Positions 2,348 through 48,250 of a stretch of 64,000 nt of DNA are shown here, one piece after another. Within the stretch, counting starts at the first letter, position 1. Each line of letters begins with the position of its first letter. Position numbers and translations under genes: made by a program. The notes below the pieces were generated by a model that was not told the origin of the DNA, did not search any database, and worked only from the letters and a program-made list of their open reading frames with translations. Source of the stretch: Octopus vulgaris (lineage: Eukaryota); assembly GCA_951406725.2 (NCBI GenBank), contig OX597823.1, positions 11,036,001-11,100,000 on the forward strand, read 5' to 3'.

Positions 2348-2555
2348 TACAAGGCGGATACAAATGCTTAGCGGTATTTCGTCTGCGTTACGTTGTGAGT
2401 TCAAATTCCGCCGAGGTCGACTTTGCCTTTCATCCTTTCGGGGTCGATAAATTAAGTACCAGTTACGCACTGGGGTCGATGTAATCAACTTAATACCTAT
2501 GTCTGTCCTTGTTTGTCTCCTCTGTGTTTAGCCCCTTGTGGGTAATAAAGAAATA
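2348..2555 (+). mobile_element. SINE family A, young tail type
   Basis: B-box-like GAGTTCAAATTCC and core GCCTTTCATCCTTTCGGGGTCGATAAATTAAGTACCAG. 15-bp TSD GGTATAAGTAAATTA at 2333-2347 and 2556-2570. Confidence 0.9.
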
Positions 2556-2859
2556 GGTATAAGTAAATTAGCTCGCACATTATATAGGTAATGATTTTTA
2601 TTTTTTACTCTTTAGTCAGGGAGAGGTAGATTGTGTCCATAACACCTATTTTCCATCATGACATCCGAAACCGGTGCAAAGAAATGAGGAAAAAAATCAT
2701 CCTCAAGACAGACATGACCCGATTGCTGCAACGGAGTAAACTCCACAAAAGATAATCAAGGTGCCGGGTGGTGGTATTAAACCAAGTCTATGCATTCTAG
2801 AACTCAAAACGCAAATAGCGGAATTAATAGCACTTTTTACCTCTAATATTGGCATAAAT

Positions 2860-3295
2860 TAAGGCGGGGAGCTGGCAGAATTGTTACCGCACCGGGCAAA
2901 ATGCTCAACAGCATTTCGCCTGTCTCTATGTTCTGAGTTCAAGTTCCAACGAAGTCGACTTTGCTTTCATTTTTCCGGGTTCGATAAGATAAGTACCAGT
3001 TGAGCACTCGGGTCGATGTAATCGTCTTAGTCCCTTCCTCGAAATTGCTGGCCTTGTGTCAAAATTTGAAACTAATATTGGCACAAATTAAGACGGTGAA
3101 CTGGTAAAGTCGTTACCGCGCTGGGCGAAATGCCTAACAACATTTCGTCTGTCAACGGTCTGAGTTCAAATTCCGCCGACGTTGACTTTGCCTTTCGAGG
3201 TCGATAAAAAAAGTACCAGTTGAACACTGGGGATTGATGTAATCGACCTGTCCCCTTCCTCGAAAATGTTTGCCTTGTACCAAAATTTACAACTA
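2860..3295 (+). mobile_element. Two tandem SINE family A copies, old tail type
   Basis: Two head-body-tail units separated and flanked by CTAATATTGGCA(T/C)AAATT (~2842, ~3072, ~3292). Confidence 0.85.
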
Positions 3296-3576
3296 ATATT
3301 GGCACAAATTTTGTAGAGAAGGTATAATCGACAAAATGGCTCCTTGTAGTCGGCTGGTACTTCATTTTAGCAACCTAGGGCAGAAGAAAGGCCAAGTTTA
3401 CCTCGGCAAAGTATGTTCCTACAACCAAATATTCATGCAAAAACAAAAAAAAAGAGACTGTAGTTTAAATAAACGCCGACTATCTTCAAGTTATCTAATT
3501 TGTTTTTTCTTCATTTTTTTCAGTCAAAATCGTGTTAATTAAATTCGACTTTTGACATTTTGTCCTTCCAAATATT

Positions 3577-4564
3577 CTTTTCTACTTTAGGCACAAGGCC
3601 CGAAATTTTGGGGGGAGGGGGCAGTCGATCAAATTGACCTCAGTACGCAACTAGTACTTAATTTATCGACCCCCGAATGGATGAATAACAAAGTCGATTT
3701 CGGCGGAATTTGAACTCAGCACTAAAGACAGACGAAATACCTATTTTTTTACTAGCCACAGGGGGCTAAACACAGAAGGGATAAATAAGGACAGACAAAC
3801 GGATTAAGTCGATTACATCGACCCCAGTGCGTAACTGGTACTTAATTTATCGACCCCGAAAGTATGAAAGGCAAAGTCGACCTCGGCGGAATTTGAACTC
3901 AGAACGTAACGGCAGACGAAATACCACTAAGCGTTTCGCCCGGCGTGCTAATGTTTCTTATTTTTTCATTGCCCACAAGGGGCTAAACATAGAGGGGACA
4001 AACAAGGACAGACAAACGGATTAAGTCGATTATATCGACCCCATTGCGTAACTGGTACTTATTTGATCGACCCCGGAAGGATGAAAGGCAAAGTTGACCT
4101 CGGCGGAATTTGAACTCAGAACGTAGCAGCAGACGAAATACCTATTTCTTTACTACCCACAAGGGGCTAAACACAGAGAGGACAAACAAGGACAGACAAA
4201 CGGATTAAGTCGATTATATAGACCCCAGTGCGTAACTGGTACTTATTTAATCGACCCCGAAAGGATGAAAGGCAAAGTCGACCTCAGTGGAATTTGAACT
4301 CAGGATATAACGGCAGACGAAATACCTATTTCTATTTCTTTACTACCCACAAGGGGCTAAACACAGAGAGGACAAACAAGGACAGACAAACGGATTAAGT
4401 CGATTATATAGACCCCAGTGCGTAACTGGTACTTATTTAATCGACCCCGAAAGGATGAAAGGCAAAGTCGATCTCGGCGGAATTTGAACTCAGAACGTAG
4501 CGACAGACGAAATACTGCTGAGCATTTCACCTGGCGTGCTTAACATTTCTGCCAGCTCGCCGCC
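3577..4564 (-). mobile_element. Five-unit concatemer of SINE family A inside one TSD pair
   Basis: Five core repeats and only one complete head. Flanked by TTTGTCCTTC(C/T)AAATATT at 3559-3576 and 4565-4582. Confidence 0.9.
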
Positions 4565-5383
4565 TTTGTCCTTCTAAATATTGAAAATTGTTACCAGTAA
4601 TAACTCAGAGTTAATCAACCAACTGTTGTATTATTTGTCAACAACATTTTTTCTGAAATGATTTTTTTTCATTATGTTTTCTTCTTTATATTTCCTGAAG
4701 AAGAAGACAAAAATTTCCTTTTAAGCTTTAAACACATCCCTTTGAAAAGAAATATTTGTGATGTATGTATCAACTCAATCTCTGGGTTTTTTTTTCTCTT
4801 GGCAGGTTTAATTAACATCATAGTATTTTTGACAATGTTATTTTATAAAAATTTCTCTCATATCTTTTAAGACTCGTACATAAATCAGTCCCTTATGAGT
4901 AAACCGAAATTCTTTCATCTTCAATTTTTTCAGTTCCTCATCTATTTCAACTTCACTATTTTTCTTTCTCCTATATTTTCTGTTTCATCAAAGGAACTAT
5001 TCTTTTCAAGTGTTTCACTGTCTATTTATATTTTCCTTCAGAAGGGAGCTTTTTTTTTCTAATAGAAGTTTTCTTTTATTTTTTCCGAAAGCCTTGGTGT
5101 AAAGAGCCAAGCAACACATCATAGATTTCAGAATTACAAGAAATTAAAAATTCCTAGAACTCTTACATTATAAAACAGATTTATAGCAGGTAAAATCTTG
5201 GAAATTTGTTCTACTTACTTCAAATATCATTATAAAAAAACCTTTAATGTGTATGTTCTAGTACTATTAAAATCTAATAACAATTTACTGTTTTTGTGTT
5301 TTACTTTAATGACGCGCATCAAGAATATTTGATATACGTTAAGAATGAACCAAACCTGTGCTCCTATGCGTTTGGATTTTACA

Positions 5384-8515: not shown

Positions 8516-9218
8516 TATGAGCAAAAACATTCGAGTGTTTTTGCTCATAGATATTTTGCTGGTTTTTGGGCGCAAAACAAGCCAGAGCGCTGATGGATTT
8601 ATAACGTGGCGAATTTGAAATTTTTTGCGCAGTAACTCATACTAAGCAAGGTTAAGGCCCTCGGGTCAACATCCCAAACCATGGTATATGAGTATCTGAA
8701 TGGCATAATCTTAATAGGTATACTTTTTAATTCCTTGTCCGTTTCCACGCATAATGTTATTTTCTATTATTTTGCTGCATTCTGGCGGTTGAATTGAGAC
8801 TTTAGCTCTCATTTCTAGATAGGTTGTTAAGTTGATGCTCACTACATCCTCAAGGCTTCGTGCTAAATATATATGTGTGTGTGTGTGTGTGTGTATTAAT
8901 GATTTGTAGGTACGTGGTATTTTGTTATGCAGCCATAATATGCTATAAAGCATATTAAATGGTCTTACAAGTCAACCACACGTTCTACTGCGTTTTCAGT
9001 GCTTATTACATTATTTTGTTAAGGTTATTTCAACAGATATTCTGCTAGCTATTAGAAGTTCTATAGAATATCTGTAGAAATAATCTAACTAAATAAAGAT
9101 ATATGTTTAACATCCAACATATATCTTTATATTTATTGTTACATTTCCCTTTATACTTTCCAAAATAACTTCTTTATATTGAACTCTACAATTTCCTTCT
9201 ATTTAACTCTCTTATATC

Positions 9219-10062
9219 TATTTCTTTACTACCCACAAGAGGCTAAACACAGAGGGGACAAACAAGGACAGACAAAGGAATTAAGTCGATTACATCGACC
9301 CCAGTGCCTAACTGGTACTTAATTTATCGACCTCGAATGGATGAAAGGCAAAGTCGACCTCGACGGAATTTGAACTCAGAACGTAACGGCAGACGAATTA
9401 CGGCTACGCATTTCGCCCGGCGTGCTAACGTTTCTGCTAGCTCGCCGCCTTTACTCTCTTATATCGTCTCTGATGATGGGATATCTTCTTTACTCGCCTT
9501 TACTCTCTTATATCGTCTCTGATGATGGGATATCTTCTACTACCCACAAGAGGTTAAACACAGAGGGGACAAACAAGGACAGACAAAGGGATTAAGTCGA
9601 TTACATCGACCCCAGTGCATAACTGGTACTTAATTTATCGACCTCGAATGGATGAAAGGCAAAGTCGACCTCGACGGAATTTGAACTCAGAACGTAACGG
9701 CAGACGAATTACGGCTACGCATTTCGCCCGGCGTGCTAACGTTTCTGCTAGCTCGCCGCCTTTACTCTCTTATATCGTCTCTGATGATGGGATATCTTCT
9801 ACTACCCACAAGAGGTTAAACACAGAGGGGACAAACAAGGACAGACAAAGGAATTAAGTCGATTACATCGACCTCAGTGCATAACTGGTACTTAATTTAT
9901 CGACCTCGAATGGATGAAAGGCAAAGTCGACCTCGACGGAATTTGAACTCAGAACGTAACGGCAGACGAATTACGGCTACGCATTTCGCCCGGCGTGCTA
10001 ACGTTTCTGCTAGCTCGCCGCCTTTACTCTCTTATATCGTCTCTGATGATGGGATATCTTCT
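9219..10062 (-). repeat. Tandem triplication of a family A SINE plus its flank (unit ~262 bp)
   Basis: Three copies share private substitutions. Original TSD ACTCTCTTATATC at 9206-9218 and 9453-9465. Confidence 0.9.
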
Positions 10063-10086
10063 ATATCCCTCAAACAGCCCTAAGAC
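10039..10086 (+). ncRNA. Degenerate type I hammerhead ribozyme
   Basis: GTCT-CTGATGA-T-GGGATAT cttct ATATCCC-T-CAAA-CAGCCCT-A-AGAC. Stem I (GTCT/AGAC) and a 7-bp stem II are intact, while GAAA and stem III are mutated. Confidence 0.6.
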
Positions 10087-10327: not shown

Positions 10328-10674
10328 ATCATCGCTTATGTATGTCACGTGATATCGGAATTCTGACATCCATGACAGAAGATTTTTCTTTGTTACGATG
10401 TATGTGTGCGCTTTTATCCAAGCGCCTATATGAGACGATCTTTCAGAGCTAAAAGCGCAGTATTCAGCATTTTATCAAGACATCTATCTTAAATTTGATA
10501 TAAAGATTACCTTTTGTTGTTAATGCTGCCTCCGTTGCGAATAGCACACACAAATACACACATAACACACACACACACACACACACACACAACACACACA
10601 CACATATGGGATTCATGAATAATTCATGAGCGTCTTTTTTTCAAATTTATTTTAAACCAAAATACTACAACAAA

Positions 10675-11984
10675 TTAACCAATCGTATACTTTCCGTTGT
10701 TGTTTAAAACTTCCTCCCATCGTTCAATAAGTTTTTCGATGCCTCGGCAGTAGAAATCTCCCGGTCTTGACTCAAAGAATTTGTCCAACCAAGCCCTCAG
10801 TTCCACGTCATTTTTGAACGATACACCGCGTAAAGCGTTCGAAAGCGGTTGAATGAGATGAAAATCTGACGACACCAATCTGGAGAGTATGGAGGATGAG
10901 GCAGTACTTTCCATTCGAGTTCTTGAATTGCGGCTGTGGTGATATTGGTGATGTGAAGACGGACGTTGACATGTTGCAGAAGAGAGCCGTTTTGCCTATT
11001 CGGTCTTTTTTGCTGAACTGCTTCGTTGAGTCGGTGCAGTTGTTGAACGTAGAGCTCCACATTAAGTGTTTTGTTACGCTCAAGCAATTCCTAATAAATT
11101 ATGCCTTCCCAGTCCCACAGTACACTCAACATGGTCTTTCGGGAATGAAGGTCTTGTTTTGCTCGAGGAGTCGCTTGTTTGTCGTGGGTGAGCCATTCTT
11201 TTCGCTGATTCATATTGACGTAAAAGCACCACTTTCCATCGCCAGTGACAATGCAGTACAGGAAACATTGTTTCTGACCATGTGTTGAGCGATGTCAAGC
11301 GAGCAAACTGGCGGCGATTGTGGAGCGTTGATTTTTATTGTTTCGGCTCAGTGTGGGTGGCACCCAAGCGCCATGTTTCCGGACCTTGTCCATTGAGGTG
11401 GTTCACTTTTGCTGTTTTTTTCTCTTTTTTTTTTTTCTTATCACAATCCTTCTACTCCGCCAATTCTCTGATCGTTTAACGTGGAGTTTCGTGAAGAAGT
11501 TGATTCAATCGCTCTTCATCGAACTCAGTTGGTCGACCGGTGTGAGATCCTTCCTTGAGGTTAAAATTCCCATTTTTGAAGTGCGAAAACCAATAGTGGG
11601 CGGTACTTTGAGGTATTTAAGGCGGCGAGCTGGCAGAATCGTTAGCACGCCGGGCGAAATGCTTAGCAGTATTTCGTCTGCCGCTACGTTCTGAGTTCAA
11701 ATTCCACCGAGGTCGACTTTGCCTTTCATCCTTTCGGGGCCGATTAAATAAGTACCAGTTACGCACTGGGGTCGATGTAATCGACTTAATCCGTGTGTCC
11801 GTCTTTGTTTGTCCCCTCTGTGTTTGGCCCCTTGTGGGTAGTAAAGAAATAGGTACTTTGAGGTATTGCACTTTCTCTATACACAGCACAAATCTCACGA
11901 ACAGCTTCAGCGACCTTAAAACCTCGATCAAATGCAAAAAGCAAATGGTGTCGAAAATGCAGCTTTGTCCGCTTGACATTCCAT
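10675..11984 (-). pseudogene. Mariner transposase pseudogene
   Basis: Fragments in several frames: HFRHHLLFAFDRG..AEAVREICAVY (HTH), VLPHPPYSPD, SDFHL and GIEKLIERWEEVLNNNGKY. Multiple frameshifts and a SINE interruption. Confidence 0.92.
11618..11851 (+). mobile_element. Full-length SINE family A nested in the mariner
   Basis: 16-bp TSD GGTACTTTGAGGTATT at 11602-11617 and 11852-11867. Confidence 0.93.
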
Positions 11985-12136
11985 TTTAATGATCTGAAAA
12001 TACACAAAATTCAATAAAATTTTAAAAATCAAAACGCACTATTTTGTAGAGCAAAATATGCTCTTTTGCCAATGTGTCTATTTCTTCGTACATTTTTAAA
12101 TTTCAAAGAAACGCTCATGAATTATTCCTCGACCTA

Positions 12137-12312
<176 letters not shown>

Positions 12313-13981
12313 ATGGCGCTGAACTAACAACAAGTGTGTTAACGTGTCTCTCCTAAATATTAAAGAAGTCCTTCCAGAGATCGATGTTATCAGAAGCGAA
12401 ATTGTCTGCAAAGCGAATATAAGTGATAGTACAACAAGTCACTGTATTTGAGAAGAATATTTTCGCTTTTGATGTAGTATTTGCAACTAGAACATACTCG
12501 CGTGTTAAAACGCACGTGTGTTACTTCCCGAAATCGAAGTGAATTTTATTCTTCGTCTGTGAATCAACAAGACACAGGATATTTTCGTTTTTGATGTATA
12601 TCTGCGTGTCCTGAAAAAAGCCTCTGAAAAATTTGCTGCTTAATACCAAATCGCTTAGGAAAATATAGAAAGTATCGTGAAACTGTTGCATGTGCTAAAT
12701 CGAAACTCAAACCCCTTTTGTTTACAAAGTGCGCTTGGGGAGGAATATAAAAGGTCTGTCTTGTCTATCTATCTTCCTTTCTTATAAAAAGGAATCACGT
12801 AAGTACTCTCTGTCAGCCGGTAAGGTAAGATATTATTTATCTTGTTATCATTAGTGTTCTTTCAAACAGAAAATAATTAAAAAAACAAAAAAGATATAAA
12901 AATATAAAAATACGCGGTATTCTATCTTTATAATCTTTATAATTTCGTGCCTGCCACGCACTCTCTCTTTCTCTTTTTTACATTTCTATTTCTATCTCTC
13001 TCATACATTTTTATTATTTGTTATCATTAGTGTTCTTTCAAACAGAAAATAATAATTAAAAAGATATAAAAATACGCGCTATTCTATCTTTATAATCTCT
13101 CCCTCTCTTTCTTACATTTCTATTTCTATCTCTCTCATACTGTTTATACCTTATCTGTCTCCCCATCCACCAGACCCTCTATTTCCGCTCTCACTCTCCC
13201 CTCCTCCCTCTCTCTCCCTCTGCAATCGTTTCTCTTTCTGCCTCTCTCTCAGATCAACTTTCTCTCACCTCACCCCCTCTCTCAGTTCCTCAACTTCACT
13301 CATTCTCTCTTGTATCTATATACCGCCCTCTTTCTCTCTCTCTCTCTCTCTGTTACTCCCCCTCCCTCTCTTTGCCTCTTTCCTCTCCGCTCCTTCACAG
13401 GTCAAACCCCTTTTCCTCTTCCCCTTCTGTCCCCTTATTTCTTTCTCTACACCACCCTCCCTGTCCCTTTACTACACTTTGTTGCGCCCCCTCTCTTCCT
13501 CTTCCCCCTTTTTCTTCCTACCTTTCCTCTCCCTGTTCCCTCTAAGGCTCACCACCCCCCTGTCTCTTTTTTCCTCTCTCTGTCTCCTTCCTCCACACCA
13601 CCCTCTCTGTCCCTTTACTTCACTCCCTGGTACCTCTATCCTGCCCTCTCTCTCTCTCCCTCTCCATTTCATCTCTCTCTTCCTCTCCATTTTATCTCTC
13701 CGCCTTTCTTCTCCCTGCCCCCCCTAGGGTCCACCCTCTTGTCTCACTTTTCCACCCTGTCCCTTTCTACTACACCTCTATCCCGCTCACTCTCCCCCTG
13801 CTGACCTGCCATTCTCTCACCTTTCTCTTTTTTCCCTCTTATTTTCTCTCTTTCTCTCTTCTCTCAGGAAAATCCCCTCGTCTCTCTCTCTATCCCCCCT
13901 GGCTTTTCTCCTTTCTCTTCTCCCTCTCCATATCTCTCCTTCTCTATCTCTCTCTCTGTTCCTATATTTCACTAGAAGAAA

Positions 13982-14877
13982 ATGGCAAGAAACTGGTCTG
14001 CGAGAGAGGTGCAATTGTTCGTCCGCGCTTGGAAGATCGCTGAGGACGACTCGCCGAACGAAATTATTGCTGCGGCGCTGAAAAGCAACAATTTTTCGAG
14101 AACCACCGCCCAGATAGAGCGAAAGAAGAGAGAAGTTATCCGTTCGTACGCTCTAATCAGGCAACATGTGGACACCCTGGACATCATCCTGGGAGGTGAC
14201 GGCAGCAGGGAGGGCCAAAAGGATGAGGAAAGCATCCAGAGCCAAATGGAGAAGCCTGGAACACAGGGAAACGATGACACATGTCCAGCTTCCAACACCA
14301 CAACTGAAGACCAAAGAGGTGCGATGGCCGCAAGAAAGGAAAGGCACCCTGGAATTGATGGGAAGCAGGAGGTAAAGGGTGACAGAATCAAGGCTAAAGG
14401 AAGCCCTGTCCAGAGAAAGCAGAGGGACCCCAGCAAAAACTGTAAGGGCAGGGAAAGAAACACCTGCAAATTCTACCTGAGGGGGACTGCTGGTACGGCG
14501 TTGAAGGTGCAAACTGTCGCTTTGCACATCGGAGGCCCTACCAAAACCGCACGGACGCGAGACAGAGGTCCCTCCCTCAGGGAGAACAAAAACAAAAAGT
14601 TAAAAGAAGGGAAAAAAGCGCACTGACCACTACTGAAAGACGGTATGCAGATGTGGTGCGCGGAAACCCAACAGGTGGCCAGCTTCACCCAGATGTGAGA
14701 AGGGCGGCAGCTGAACAGCAGTCTTTTTTGTGCATGGCACAAAAAATTGTTCAGCAGCTGACCTGGCTACAAGCACAAAGCTGGAACTACCACCACATAA
14801 GGCCACCTCCAACAGATGCAGGATGGCCACCACAGACACCAACACCAACACACACACCACAAAAATATTTCTACTGA
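13982..14877 (+). CDS. LINE ORF1 (~298 aa if one frameshift is corrected): Myb/SANT-like N-terminus plus CCCH zinc finger
   Basis: WSAREVQLFVRAW...IAAAL....FSRTTAQIERK..EV...Y. Adding one G in the G5 run at 14481-14485 gives CKFYLRGDCWYGVEGANCRFAH and joins ORF 14653-14877. Confidence 0.75.
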
Positions 14878-17832
14878 ATGTAGGAGGGCTGCTGCGCGGA
14901 AACTGTAAAAAGAAAATTTCATTCCTGAGAGACCTTGTGACATGCAATCAAGCTATATGCATGGCACTCACAGAAACGCATCTTGAACCCGATATAGGTG
15001 ATGCAGAAATACACATGCCGCAATATGCAGTCATACGCACAGATAGAAAAGGGAGGAGCCATGGTGGAGTTGCAATGTACATCCGAGATGACCTCACGCC
15101 CCAGGTCCTGCTGTCATATTCAAACTCAGTATGTGAAACTCAAATTGTACACATAAGACAACTGAATATCGTCATATGCACTACATATCGCCCACCAGAC
15201 GCCCCAAAACACTCAGGCATGTTTGAAGACTGCCTAACAAAAATAGGAGAAGTCCTCACCAACCTTGAACAGCACAACAGTGTATTCTTCATGGGTGACT
15301 TTAACCTCCCCAATGTGGAATGGCCTGGGGGGCAGATGCTCCCAGGGATGACACACCATCAGCAGGCACAGGTGGAGTCCCTGCTCCATCTCACAAATAC
15401 CTCTTTCATGGAGCAAATAGTTCTGCAACCAACAAGGGCAGATAATATACTGGATCTCTGCTTTACAAACAATATGGATATTATCCATAATGTTAATGTG
15501 ATGCCGACAATGATCTCGGATCACAACATAATAGAGCTGTCTATGTATGGAACAAAAGCCCCCGCAGACACACAGCCTATACGAAGCACCCACCATCTCT
15601 CCAACTTAAACTTTCATAAAGCCAACTGGAAGTCGATTGAGAAAGAGATCCTCAAACAGGATTGGCCTGAATGTCTCTCCACACCGGACATAAACATGAA
15701 ACACAAACACTTCATGTCCATAATACAAGCCATATGTGACAAATATGTCCCAATGTGCAGGGCCAGCACACACAAGAATAAAAACAGGATCCCTAGAGAA
15801 AGGAGGATTCTTATGAGACGACGGACAAGGATTGCAAACCGCCTGAGCAAGCACACCAAAAGTGGTGAGAAGTCTCGGCTCGAAAGAATGCTAATGGAAA
15901 CTGAGAAAAGTCTACATCAGTCCCATGAAAAGGAGAGAGCAGATAAAGAAGCTTGGGTAATAGAAAATATAAAATCAAACCCTAAAGCTTTCTTTAAGTT
16001 TGCCAAAGAGACAGCCACAGTGCACCAGAGAATAGGACCTCTCTTCCAAAAAGATGGCTCTCTCACAGGAAATCCCACGAGGATAAGTGAAATACTGAAC
16101 GAACAGTTCCAAAGTGTGTTCACTACACCTCTAGGACACAGGCAAGTAAACAACCCAGAAGAATTCTTTGCCACTTTACCTGCGGCCAAAGAGACAAAAA
16201 TTGAGTACATCAACATCGAAGATGATGATATCACACTAGCCATTGATGAGATTGACACAAACTCAGCTGCTGGACCTGATGGATTCCCAGCGATCCTTCT
16301 CAAATCGTGCAAACGAGCCCTTGCAAAACCGCTACAGCTTCTTTTTCAGAGCTTTCTTGCAAGTGGTAAGCTCCCAGTCAAACTGAAAGAGGGGGTAATA
16401 TGCCCTATCCATAAGGGAGGTAGCAGAGCAGATGCTAAAAATTATAGGCCTATCTCTCTGACCTCACACATCAGCAAAGTCATGGAACGAATAGTCCGTA
16501 AGAAACTAATCATGTTCCTTGAAGAAAATGACTTACTGTCTGACACCCAGCATGGATTTCGACCAGGTAGAGGCTGCCTAACACAGCTCCTGCAACACTA
16601 TGACTGGGTGTTGAAACAGCTACTAAATGGCTCAAATGTGGATGTAATATATCTTGACTTTGCAAAAGCCTTTGATAAAGTCGACCATGGTATGATCTGT
16701 CACAAACTGCGTGGTCTCGGCATAGGCGGGAAACTTGGAGAGTGGCTGCACAACTTCCTAAAAGACAGAAAACAGGCAGTTGTGAGCAATGGAGCCACCT
16801 CCAGGGAAACGCAAATAACAAGCGGTGTCCCACAGGGCACTGTCTTGGGGCCACTGATGTTCATAGTGGCCCTTTCAGACATGCCTTCAGTTGCTACGAT
16901 GACCACCCTTGCTAGCTATGCAGATGACACAAAGTCTCCCACGCAATACAAAACCCTGAAAATATTGCGCATCTGCAACATGAGCTGGACACAATATACA
17001 GGTGGGCTGAGGACAACAACATGCAGTTTAATGCAGGTAAGTTCCAGGCCCTGCGCTACTGGCACACAAAGGTAAATGACGTGAAGACTGGATACACTGG
17101 CCCAGGAAGAATTGCAATCCCTGAGTCAAAATCAGTGCGTGACCTGGGCATTGACATGAGCAATGATGCATCTTTCCAAATGCATATTGCTAATCTGGTG
17201 ATAAAATGCAGACGGCTAGCTGGATGGATTCTCCGAACTTTCAGAACAAGAGAGAAGGAGACACTGATGGTCCTATGGAAAACATTTGTCCTCAGCCGCT
17301 TGGACTACTGCTCCCAACTTTGGTCACCACACAATATAAAACAAACAGCAGAACTCGAAGCAACTCAGAGAAGCTACACAAAGAAAATCGTCTCAATGCA
17401 AAATGTCAGCTACTGGGAAAGACTGAAGGTATTAAACCTCTTCTCCCTGGAGCGGAGGCGGGAGAGATATGCAGTGATATACATCTGGAAAATCCTGGAG
17501 GGTCTTGTCCCAAACTTTGGCATTCAAAGTTACTCCAACCGCAGAACGGGCGCCGCTGCGTGGTGCCAAGGATTCCAACATCACCATCAAAATACAGGTC
17601 CAGATACTGCAACAGCTTGGGTTTCAGAGGACCACAGCTCTTTAACATCCTCCCTAAATGCCTGAGAGACTTACATGGTGTGGATGTGGGTTTCTTTAAA
17701 ACTAAACTGGATCTCTTCTTGTTGGGAGTCCCAGATGAACCTACCTCACGACAGGAGACACGGATGCGGGCAGCAGCATCGAACTCCCTTGTTGATCAAG
17801 TGCCACGTATCAGAGGTGGATTCACAAACTAG
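14823..17832 (+). CDS. LINE ORF2: apurinic-like endonuclease + reverse transcriptase (~1003 aa if two frameshifts are corrected)
   Basis: APE motifs LTETHL, GGVAMY, YRPP, GDFNLP, LDLCF and SDH. RT motifs NYRPISLTS, QHGFR, YLDFAKAFDKV, SGVPQGTVLGP and YADDTK. CR1-type C-terminus LDYCSQLWSP, SYWERL..LNLFSLERRR. Confidence 0.95.
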
Positions 17833-17908
17833 TGTAGCTCATTCAGCGGTGGTGCCCCAGCATGGCCGCGGCCTTGGGGCTAAAACATTTTTAAGGATTT
17901 AAGGATTT

Positions 17909-18382
17909 ATATGCATATATACATACATATATGTACGTACCTACATCTAAATGTATATATACATGCATATATGGATATAGGACACCAAAAAAAAAACATC
18001 GAACACAATGAGAAACGAAAACATAAAAATAAAACCAAGGAAATGGACATTTTTCTTAAACAAGAAAAAAAGAGTACAACACAAGGAACATTCCCCTTCT
18101 ACAGCCGCCTCTGTTTCATCTGCTCCGTGTTTCGAAGGTAAAGGTTTCGCCTTTACCTTCGAAACAGAGGCGGCTGAAGAAGGGGAATGTTCCTTGTGTT
18201 GTATGTCTTGTACTCTTTTTTTTGTTGTTTAAGAAAAATGTCCATTTCCTTAGTTTTGTGTTTATGTTTTCGTTTCTCATTGTGTTCGACGTTTTTTTTT
18301 TTTTGGTGTCCTGTATCCATATATGCATGTATATATACATTTAGATGTAGGTACGTACATATATGTATGTATATATGCATAT
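17909..18382. repeat. Near-perfect ~470-bp palindrome (foldback)
   Basis: Arms 17909-18144 and 18150-18382 around a 5-nt loop TTTCG, with a few substitutions and indels. Confidence 0.92.
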
Positions 18383-18420
18383 GTTTTATTTATGTATATA
18401 TATATGTGTATATATATATG

Positions 18421-18467
<47 letters not shown>

Positions 18468-18638
18468 GCATGTACATTATCATACTTATATACATACATA
18501 TGTATGTTTGTCTGTGGGTGTTTAAGAATGCGTATGTGTGTTCATGAGCATGTATGTGTACGATTCTGTGATATATATATACGTGTGTGTGTGTATGCAT
18601 ACATACACATACATATACATATATACATATGTATATAC

Positions 18639-24135: not shown

Positions 24136-24313
24136 GCTGTTTATTATGATATGAGACCACCATGTCGCGCACATATGGTTGTAATGCATGTGCCTGGTGT
24201 ACCCTTATCAGACGGGTAGTCATGATAGGTATACTGGGCTTCGTATATTTTACCCCAGTGTCACTTTGATGGCATGCACTGCTCTCTCACTCAATAATAA
24301 TAATAATAATAAT
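24136..24313 (+). mobile_element. 3' end of an (AAT)n-tailed retroposon (family E, probably a LINE 3' UTR)
   Basis: Ends GGCATGCACTGCTCTCTCACTC(AAT)n. Variably 5'-truncated copies elsewhere in the window. Confidence 0.8.
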
Positions 24314-24314
24314 C

Positions 24315-24920
24315 TTTTCTAATAGAGGAACAAAGCCCGAAAATTTGAGGAGGGACTAGTCGATTACATCGGCCCCACTGTTTCACTGCTGCTTAATTTA
24401 TTGACTCCAAAGTATGAATGGCAAAGTCGACCTCGGCGGAATTTGAACTCAGAACGTAGACGAAATACCTATTTCGTTACTACCCACAAGGGGCTAAATA
24501 CAGAGAGGCAGAAGTAATAATCATAATAATAATAATAATAATAATAATAATCCTTTCTACTATAGGCACGAGGTTTGAAATTTTGCGAGAGGCGATTAGT
24601 CGGTTACATCGACCCCAGTGTTTCACTGATACTTATTTTTCCGACCCCGAAAGGATGAAAGGCAAAGTCGACCTCGGCAGAATTTGAACTTAGAATGTAC
24701 GACAAGCGAAATACCTATTTGTTTACTACCCACAAGGGGCTAAACACAGAGGGGACAAACAAGGACAGACAAACGGATTAAGTCGATTATATCGACACCA
24801 GTGCGTAACTGGTACTTATTTAATCGACCCCGAAAGGATGAAAGGCAAGGCCGACCTCGGCGGAATTTGAACTCAGAACGTAACGGCAGACGGAATACCG
24901 CTAAAGCATTTCGCCCGGAT
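24315..24920 (-). mobile_element. Cluster of SINE family A units (young tail joined to old body)
   Basis: Three cores, with junctions CGAAATACC|TATTT at ~24469 and ~24715. Confidence 0.85.
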
Positions 24921-31680: not shown

Positions 31681-32330
31681 AATTATTTCTACTATTGCAG
31701 AGCCGTTAGGGCCTCGGACAGTTTGTTTATGTTTCCGAGAAGAAGAATAATGTTAAGTGAGATCCTATTGGTACATTTGACAAAGAAAACTACGAATTAA
31801 CACTTACTCACATGGGTTTTATCAAACGAAAGTAATTCTTTATTTCTTAATGATAGAAATGCGAGTCGAGGTCCAATTTCCTGTTTTAAAAGTGTAACTT
31901 GCAACAGACGAACTTCGGATATGAAACATTTAGACGAAAAAAAGCTGGTATGTCAGCATGGTGTTATAAAAACAAATGTTTTTCTAACTGAAACTATCAC
32001 ACAGGTGAAAGAAAGAGAAGGAAGGTAACCAAACTGCATGCTGCCAAAATTGTAGGGATGTTCTACTTTCAGAAGAATAATTCGAGCTTACCCTTATTTA
32101 TCCATGGAGTTTAATCTCTTACATCGGGTGACGGGTGGCATATTACACTGTGTCTTGTTTATAAAACTGAAGACGGGACAAAAAGGTAAGCTCAGTGCGT
32201 TGCAAACATGTCTATAGTAAAATTCTACAATATATGAAACGGAAAATTTCTCGTAGTGGCTTTTCTAACACAATGTGGACAAATAGTCAACGGTGGTGCG
32301 AATTTTGGCAATATATGGTGGATTGAAGTC

Positions 32331-32565
32331 CCTTATTTTTTCTACTGCCCACAAGGGGCTAAATATAGAGGGGACAAACAAGGACAGACAAAGGGATTAA
32401 GTCGATTACATCAACCCCCAGTGCGTAACTGGTACTTAATTTATCGACCCCGAAAGGATGAAAGGCAAAGTCGACCTCGGCGGAAATTTGAACTCAGAAC
32501 GTAACGGCAGACTGCTAAGCATTTCGCCCGGCGTGCTAACGATTCTGCCAGCTTGCCGCCTTAAT
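32331..32565 (-). mobile_element. Full-length SINE family A
   Basis: 15-bp TSD TGGTGGATTGAAGTC at 32316-32330 and 32566-32580. Confidence 0.92.
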
Positions 32566-33599
32566 TGGTGGATTGAAGTCTCTAAAGACATACAAATATC
32601 CTCATTACATCACAACAACCCAAACTATCTCAGAGTTGCATCCTTTAGTGGGTGCCGAGATAAAATCGTTGCAAGTATTCATTCACAATTGCTACACAGT
32701 TGGCTATGAAGGTCATTTTAGCGCCTTCTCAGAAGAGCTGGAAAAACTAAAAGCAACAGGAGTTTATGGAGGCTGTTGTATCTAGGACACCACTGGGCGC
32801 GGTTCCAAAAGGAAAATCGCATTGTCCTCGCTTCTTGGAATCAATCATGAGGATGAGGGACTCCTCCCCTTCTTATAGCCTTTACACGCCCATCGTCTTG
32901 GGATAATGAAGAGGAGACTGAAAACAAACATAAGTGACAAACTAATAAATATAGTGAGAAAGGAAGAAGATGGAGAAGAATTCGAAAAGATGAAGTACAC
33001 CCAAGAGATGGCAAACAAAATTTGTGAAAAAGGAGCCCATCCTAGCTAACGTTACATCGAAATTTACAGTTCTTCACACAATAAATGAAGAACTGATGAA
33101 AGAGTTAGAATATTTACAGTTTATACTGGCGAGGAGATGGTCTTTGATTACGTAGGGTTTGTGAAAGACGGGATATTAAAATAATACATAGGAACAATGG
33201 AAACCAGCACCAGCACTTAATGTTTACTTCGCTGCTTTAATCAGCACAAAATTGCTCCTGAACAATTTTGGAACCAGAATTGCATGGGTTATGAGACCAG
33301 ATAAATGGGTGGTATGGGGAGATCTCACCCATGTATGGGCGAGCAAACCAATTTGTGATACACATGTTATAACTTGTTTAAATTAGATTGAGTTTAATAT
33401 AACTTTATATTTATGCTGTACGAGTAAAGCAACCCCCCACGTCCAATGGACGGTGCTGAGTTGTCAAACATTTAAGCCAAATTTTCTCAAAACAACTTGT
33501 CCGACCGTTCCATAGGCCTCCCCTTTGAGAAACACTGATTTAACCTAAATTTTAGATACCAGCAAAAGAAGAAATAAAGATAGACTTTTTTTTCTATTC

Positions 33600-47157: not shown

Positions 47158-48186
<1,029 letters not shown>

Positions 48187-48194
48187 GATTAGTA

Positions 48195-48250
<56 letters not shown>

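Follow-up and report, generated by a model that had tools for sequence, protein, structure and literature searches.

A young two-ORF LINE in the Octopus vulgaris genome with three frameshifts that are probably assembly errors

Introduction

The stretch analysed here (the window) comprises 64,000 nucleotides of the Octopus vulgaris genome (assembly GCA_951406725.2, contig OX597823.1, positions 11,036,001 to 11,100,000 of the forward strand; all positions below are those of the window). It contains a long interspersed element (LINE), a retrotransposon without long terminal repeats (non-LTR), whose two open reading frames (ORFs) are interrupted by three frameshifts. Are the bases missing from the octopus genome, or only from its assembly? 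A preliminary description, made from the sequence alone, had placed each frameshift in a run of identical bases and suggested that long-read error in a young repeat hides an intact element.

We conclude, with a probability of about 0.83, that the LINE is a near-full-length member of a young family of two-ORF non-LTR retrotransposons with many copies and that the three breaks are assembly errors at this locus. The true locus sequence would then be G6, A4 and G4, with one base per run dropped in assembly. The bases would have been lost by long-read consensus in long near-identical repeats, where short-read polishing could not place reads. Homopolymer errors that were left in repeats after polishing are documented for bacterial genomes (PMC8812927).

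The family form is intact

The breaks were located exactly, at G5 (14481-14485), A3 (16931-16933) and G3 (17548-17550), and the reading frame switches at each (Table 1). These are the positions given in the preliminary description, and they hold in the window sequence. The A3 run directly adjoins the YADDT codons on their 3' side. When one placeholder base is restored per site, ORF1 and ORF2 both translate without an internal stop, as had been claimed. ORF1 (placeholder at break 1) then has 298 aa, and ORF2 has 1,039 aa from stop to stop or 1,003 aa from its first ATG (14823), which lies inside the end of ORF1 (55-nt overlap).

We compared the window with contigs of public sequencing runs. Of 24 runs listed, 19 share at least half of the element's words (shares of 0.76-0.92); they have four different organism labels, and all consist of contigs. 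Most of the top-holding runs are RNA by guess only, and X9 and X15 are labelled DNA. Contigs of four runs (X1, X8, X9 and X15) were aligned to 13900-17985, and indels were listed at 15% or more. The only such indels in all four runs are gains of one base at the three break sites, namely a G inserted after 14480, an A after 16930 and a G after 17547. In X8 and X15, break 2 also has a variant with an extra G behind 16933 in place of the extra A.

The extra base is present in all depth at all three sites in X1 and X9. The shares in the two deep runs, for breaks 1, 2 (both forms) and 3, are 90%, 23% and 72% in X15 and 66%, about half and 37% in X8. The remaining depth is probably made up of short contigs that stop near the break sites, because the loose ends listed at positions 14485 and 17550 represent the longer form after clipping. 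A single X9 contig (3,463 nt) covers 14369-17828 with 8 substitutions and all three gaps, and its substitutions introduce no stop. An X1 contig of 1,592 aligned letters has 1 substitution relative to the window and the extra G at break 1; it is therefore a near-twin of the window copy that is intact at this site.

Unbroken protein relatives run through break 2 (DDTKVS) and break 3 (RTGRHC) as predicted, and the unbroken protein P0138 matches ORF1 on both sides of break 1 (E 9e-19 and 2e-22). Because contigs carry the additional base at all three sites without a stop, and unbroken relatives cross each break, the family form of the LINE is intact, with an ORF1 of 298 aa and an ORF2 of ~1,000 aa.

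Functional recoding, by programmed -1 frameshifting or RNA-level insertion, would be an alternative explanation of the shifts. The three shifts do have the same sign, and G5 and A3 look slippery. We consider this extremely improbable, as the extra bases are already in contigs of the DNA-labelled runs X9 and X15 and relatives encode unbroken proteins. Programmed frameshifting and RNA editing were rejected for the same reason, the presence of the extra bases in family-level contigs.

The family is young, multi-copy and 5'-truncating. Only 3 substitutions (15464, 16181 and 16223; two synonymous, one D/E) distinguish the window from the main contigs in every one of the four runs. Divergence is 0.07% from the main contigs and 0.23% from the X9 contig, which corresponds to an age of ~0.2-0.6 million years at the substitution rate used in PMC13282606. 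The youth and repetition of the element, also part of the preliminary description, are supported by these contigs. Synonymous changes account for 12 of the 23 ORF2 variants listed, where 22% would be expected (p 0.0017, without correction for transition bias). In X15, main-contig depth is 200 at the 5' end and increases to 1,051 close to the 3' end, the pattern left by 5'-truncated LINE copies. The 64-kb window contains neither a second LINE copy nor a short interspersed element (SINE) with the 3' end of the LINE. Low-depth contigs of X8 and X15 over 14610-17847 are family copies with internal deletions (skips of 40-597 bases). Transcription of the LINE is likely, given that most of the top-holding runs are labelled RNA, by guess.

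Assembly error or real deletions

Could the window copy differ from its intact family through real mutation? As a control we took 11 pairs of other repeats from the window, some with copies in common: ten were chosen by hand among the leading matches of the self-comparison, and the eleventh consists of the two arms of the flanking hairpin. These pairs have 183 substitutions and 19 gaps, of which 2 are one-base gaps in runs of at least 4. In the LINE, 3-8 substitutions stand beside 3 one-base homopolymer gaps, all of them losses (Fisher test against the control, p 1.7e-4 to 1.3e-3). By the same pairs, the window elsewhere is not riddled with one-base homopolymer gaps. The gap spectrum of the LINE is thus far from that of the control, as would be expected of error confined to a long near-identical repeat. 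Runs of at least 4 hold 6.3% of the bases of the element in its family form, so that three hits by uniform placement have p = 2.5e-4.

One or more of the deletions may instead be real and private to this copy, produced by slippage of reverse transcriptase (RT) or of replication; the copy would then be dead and the family intact. Slippage in vivo and by RT also prefers homopolymer runs, and the chance of three hits rises to 0.07 if it favours such runs tenfold, and to 0.07-0.3 with 10-30-fold weighting. A variant of one copy would escape the contigs, and the 3 private substitutions indicate that the copy is not identical to the family. We nonetheless regard private deletion as unlikely. The ratio of homopolymer deletions to private substitutions is 1:1, compared with ~1:90 in the other repeats of the window; all three changes are losses, and no contig with the window form was identified.

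It is much less likely that the assembly merged several near-identical copies, as a mosaic or by collapse, so that the breaks and substitutions describe no single locus. Several near-identical full-length copies, at least, exist, and window alleles match X1 at 15399 and 17507 but X9 at 15779 and 16655. However, contigs are themselves paths through many copies and would give the same allele sharing, and both flanks resemble an ordinary insertion site.

Several points weigh against assembly error as we have drawn it, beyond the preference of slippage for homopolymer runs. When any gap is counted, the contrast between the LINE and the control drops to p 0.017-0.09. The control pairs are a hand-picked set with copies in common, and their repeats have a greater age and a shorter length than the LINE. 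Depth not assigned at break 2 amounts to 77% in X15 and to about half in X8 even when the G variant is added. The evidence consists of contigs rather than locus-specific reads, and contigs lose rare variants, so that a deletion in one copy would not show. The marking of runs as RNA is also a guess. Thus, long-read homopolymer error, the cause named in the preliminary description, stands as the likeliest one from the family form and the mutation spectrum; that the bases are present at this very locus, and that the copy could retrotranspose, goes beyond what the family-level contigs show.

ORF2 and the class of the element

ORF2 encodes an apurinic/apyrimidinic endonuclease (APE) and an RT. The catalytic motifs TETH, YRPP, GDFN, SDH, DFAKAFD, GVPQG and YADD are kept. 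ORF2 is 72% identical to the unbroken protein P0004 over 1,034 columns; the named relative, from Argonauta hians, is 57% identical. With endonuclease and RT in one ORF, no long terminal repeats and 5'-truncated copies, the element is an APE-type LINE. A long terminal direct repeat was not identified in 10400-18500 among the 20 largest of the 36 repeat families listed.

ORF2 of the CR1 group is not known to have a C-terminal CCHC knuckle or RNase H. No C-terminal CCHC pattern was identified in ORF2, and Pfam assigned no family to the C-terminal pieces P0002 and P0003, a weak negative because these are fragments. CR1 elements end in a short microsatellite (an octamer) instead of poly(A) (PMC8665684). 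The window element has such a tail, 2.5 copies of TTTAAGGA at 17890-17909, and no poly(A). Putative membership of the CR1 group (CR1, L2, Crack, Daphne, Kiri and Rex1; PMC13343379) fits the anatomy, namely two ORFs, APE and RT, an octamer tail and no poly(A).

CR1 elements are present in 35 of the mollusc genomes examined in one survey (PMC10294476). For O. vulgaris, PMC13282606 reports hundreds of recent near-full-length CR1 copies and, in its Table 1, 13 CR1 families with recent activity that comprise 787 insertions and 3.2 Mb. The window element resembles these families in its two ORFs, APE and RT in ORF2, short 3' untranslated region (UTR) with an 8-bp repeat, lack of poly(A), 5' truncation and divergence below 2%, and it may belong to one of the 13. 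It differs from avian CR1 in its tail unit (TTTAAGGA rather than ATTCTRTG; PMC8665684), and from the CR1 group in an ORF1 without a match to esterase, RRM, CCHC, Tnp22 or PHD.

The brain-expressed LINE of O. vulgaris, RTE-2_OV (PMC9115989), is likewise a young, potentially active element with APE and RT. Unlike the window element, it has a single ORF of 1,109 aa with a C2H2 finger. The RTE clade was rejected for the window element, which has two ORFs and no C-terminal finger pattern. The main text of PMC9115989 makes no use of the term 'CR1'.

ORF1 with a Myb/SANT-like domain and a CCCH finger

The N-terminal domain of ORF1 is likely Myb/SANT-like, on Pfam, language-model and fold evidence, each weak alone. 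Pfam PF13837 (Myb_DNA-bind_4) matches it at E 3e-4 with 21.6 bits, below the cut-off of 27, and matches 4 of 21 relatives. An AlphaFold2 (AF2) model has a predicted local distance difference test score (pLDDT) of 84 and helices at residues 7-19, 25-35 and 42-74. Its top structural matches are SANT (Z 7.6, root-mean-square deviation (rmsd) 3.7, 68 residues aligned), MYB and TEAD4 (Z 7.2) and GT-1 (Z 6.8), all below the tool's caution level of 8; a match at Z 7.2 has an rmsd of 2.5 with 58 residues aligned. Most of the top 50 structural matches are of Myb, SANT or homeodomain type, and language-model features put the domain at 0.86-0.91 to Myb clusters. Foldseek with the model gave no match at E<=0.001, and a profile of the domain gave one chance match (E 0.64) among sequences of solved structures.

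A single CCCH finger (C-x7-C-x8-C-x3-H) follows and is split by break 1. Its unbroken form is present in P0138 and P0148, and it corresponds to the first of the tandem fingers in the metagenome loci L001, L003 and L019. A search of 1.84 billion proteins with a profile of the first 75 residues of ORF1 returned 24, among them P0138 (371 aa), an ORF1 free of breaks that has the N-terminal domain, the finger and the C-terminal motif. Among the 28 proteins P0124-P0151, 2 have a whole CCCH finger and 1 a degraded one. A search with P0138 returned only P0138 and P0152. Pfam identified only Myb_DNA-bind_4 in the two halves of ORF1 and no family in P0138. We hold the architecture, a Myb/SANT-like domain together with a CCCH finger, to be quite probably real.

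All seven named ORF1 matches are from Octopus vulgaris and O. sinensis. These octopus proteins (P0124-P0130), annotated as 'hypothetical' or 'uncharacterized', are fragments or gene-model chimeras of the ORF1 of this LINE. Gene sets list this transposon ORF as host genes.

Five ORF1 types, with neither a Myb/SANT-like nor a CCCH domain among them, have been defined from 448 elements, with domain shuffling stressed (PMC4120745). Pfam gave no match to types I-IV of the Jockey superfamily (RRM+CCHC, Tnp22, PHD(+RRM) and esterase), in a profile comparison that a faint RRM might escape; by default the window ORF1 would be type V (unclassified). The main texts of PMC4120745 and PMC5203782 contain neither 'myb' nor 'ccch', and 'myb' is likewise absent from PMC13343379 and PMC11203168. 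Literature searched by title and abstract, a search that left Repbase Reports, Dfam and subscription journals outside, holds no description of a CCCH- or Myb-type LINE ORF1.

Other non-LTR retrotransposons with a Myb domain are R2 and TRAS1, where it lies within the RT-bearing protein and reads a fixed target. The putative Myb domain of the window element differs in being on a separate ORF1.

Marine relatives with tandem CCCH fingers

We identified 80 metagenome loci with a related ORF2 and looked at 43, hand-chosen for ~400 or more bases upstream of the match. CCCH motifs are present in the upstream ORF of 12 of these (L001, L003, L004, L013, L014, L018, L019, L020, L024, L026, L030 and L033). 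An RT tree was built from 36 rows: the window, 6 proteins, all 12 loci with CCCH and 17 of the 31 that lack it; the 14 omitted loci include the close L007, L008, L031, L032 and L035 (upstream DNA short or without a long ORF). In this tree the window and all 12 CCCH loci form one clade with support of 100/100, apart from the 17 others.

The window finger is of the same type as the first finger of the marine elements, several of which also have tandem tails of 8-9 bp. The marine elements differ in having tandem fingers (three visible in L001, L003 and L019) instead of one. In some of them PHD lies ahead of the fingers, where the octopod ORF1 has the Myb-like domain; it was identified in L030 (Pfam), with PHD-like residues by eye in L001 and L013. 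A profile of that domain had no match in 93 upstream ORFs of metagenome relatives (best E 0.43). Because the CCCH loci and the window form one clade, and the Myb-like domain is missing in the metagenome relatives, the lineage appears to be marked by CCCH fingers, with an octopod branch that has one finger and another N-terminal domain. The literature searched contains no description of a tandem-CCCH ORF1 clade of marine LINEs.

Extent of the element and neighbouring features

The 82 bases before ORF1 are at family-level depth in all four runs, and the contigs of all four extend upstream past 13900. Thus, the CT-rich tract (~13100-13960, 81-87% pyrimidine) is at least partly 5' UTR. The putative upstream part also includes a ~175-bp tandem duplication (12837-13147). 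In P0144, a distant ORF1 relative, translated CT/CA-rich sequence precedes ORF1. Position 12311, where (AT)87 ends and AAGATGGCG begins, is a candidate element start. This 9-mer occurs nowhere else in the window and, we assume, resembles a YY1 site. YY1 sets the start of transcription in L1 (PMC8535693). The possible 1.7-kb 5' UTR (12311-13981) has GGTAAG, which resembles a splice donor, near 12820, and an extended pyrimidine tract that ends in AG at 13975, shortly before the ORF1 ATG. An intron between these is possible; an X1 contig is unspliced across 13900-13982, with the donor outside the aligned stretch.

A stable hairpin in the 3' UTR is a further criterion for the CR1 group; a stem-loop predicted there (-25.6 kcal/mol) is no better than shuffles (z -1.22; 23 of 200 fold as well). 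In X15, the contig of another copy passes from the tail into (TA)n, with its loose end at 17892. No target-site duplication of at least 9 bases was identified between the 3' flank and 11500-14000, where TA-rich flanks would mask a short one.

A hairpin element resembling a miniature inverted-repeat transposable element (MITE; 17909-18382) directly follows the LINE tail and has 93-nt arms that are 97% complementary. The divergence between these arms exceeds that of the LINE from its family, so the LINE probably inserted beside the hairpin. Upstream is a decayed DNA transposon (10617-12137, minus strand), presumably of the mariner family, with 17-bp matching inverted ends (10617-10633 and 12111-12127) and a transposase remnant with WVP and YSPD motifs, several stops and one frameshift. 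A ~240-bp dispersed repeat is inserted in it (11617-11858), and its right end abuts the (AT)87 before the LINE. More than a dozen copies of a dispersed SINE-like repeat (~200-240 bp) also lie in the window, some arranged in tandem, together with three or more other dispersed repeat families of 350-500 bp.

Table 1. Features of the LINE and its surroundings, in window positions. Depths at the breaks are given as depth with the extra base/all depth.
Feature	Position	Strand	Remarks
(AT)87 microsatellite	12137..12310	.	possible insertion target, on 5' side of LINE
Putative upstream part of 5' UTR	12311..13899	+	predicted; starts directly after (AT)87 with AAGATGGCG
5' UTR adjoining ORF1	13900..13981	+	part of element; X15 depth 200, against 262-293 in ORF1
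ORF1	13982..14877	+	read across break 1; both halves matched by P0138
Myb/SANT-like three-helix domain (likely)	13982..14209	+	ORF1 N-terminus; Pfam PF13837, AF2 model, structural matches
CCCH zinc finger	14465..14529	+	residues 162-183
Break 1	14481..14485	+	window G5, family +1 G; X1 34.5/34.5, X9 14.3/14.3, X15 315.6/352.1, X8 15065/22682
ORF2	14715..17832	+	AP endonuclease and RT with YADD; Pfam PF03372, PF14529, PF00078
Break 2	16931..16933	+	window A3, family +1 base; X1 197.7/197.7, X9 14.3/14.3, X15 836.5 (+361.7 G variant)/5289, X8 1664 (+72165 G variant)/180196
Break 3	17548..17550	+	window G3, family +1 G; X1 247.4/247.4, X9 14.3/14.3, X15 1050.9/1456.4, X8 127986/344086
3' UTR, short	17833..17909	+	ends in 8-bp repeat (TTTAAGGA)x2.5; no poly(A)
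SINE-like and other dispersed repeats	2362-4566, 9213-10065, 11617-11858, 24293-24918, 32326-32570, 47625-48220 and others		self-comparison

Mechanism and implications

The cycle of APE-type LINEs is established for other elements, and we apply it to this one by analogy. RNA would be made from an internal 5' promoter, the ORF2 endonuclease would nick the target, and RT would start from the stem-loop and 8-bp tail of the 3' end; new copies would mostly be 5'-truncated. ORF1 may package the RNA via its CCCH finger and might touch DNA or chromatin via the Myb/SANT-like domain. Present activity of the LINE and these functions of ORF1 are presumed.

A bolder proposal is that this is an active octopod LINE lineage with an undescribed ORF1 type, in which a Myb/SANT-like domain replaces PHD next to CCCH and ORF1 steers insertion into (TA)n. 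The targeting idea derives from only two junctions, one in an X15 contig and one at the 5' flank of this copy, the latter provided that the element truly begins at 12311; we consider the proposal unlikely. If it is true, the target would be chosen by ORF1, not ORF2.

A young CR1-type LINE is ordinary in octopus, young CR1 elements of O. vulgaris and the swapping of ORF1 domains having already been published; the Myb/SANT and CCCH ORF1 is a modest novelty. Counts of intact LINEs from this assembly are probably too low, as a family with fully open contigs appears triply broken. For octopus biology, the element is a concrete young two-ORF LINE, probably transcribed and distinct from the brain RTE element, that can be tracked for insertion polymorphism. 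The ORF1 with Myb/SANT-like domain and CCCH finger, together with the tandem-CCCH ORF1 clade, may extend the known modular set of LINE ORF1 proteins.

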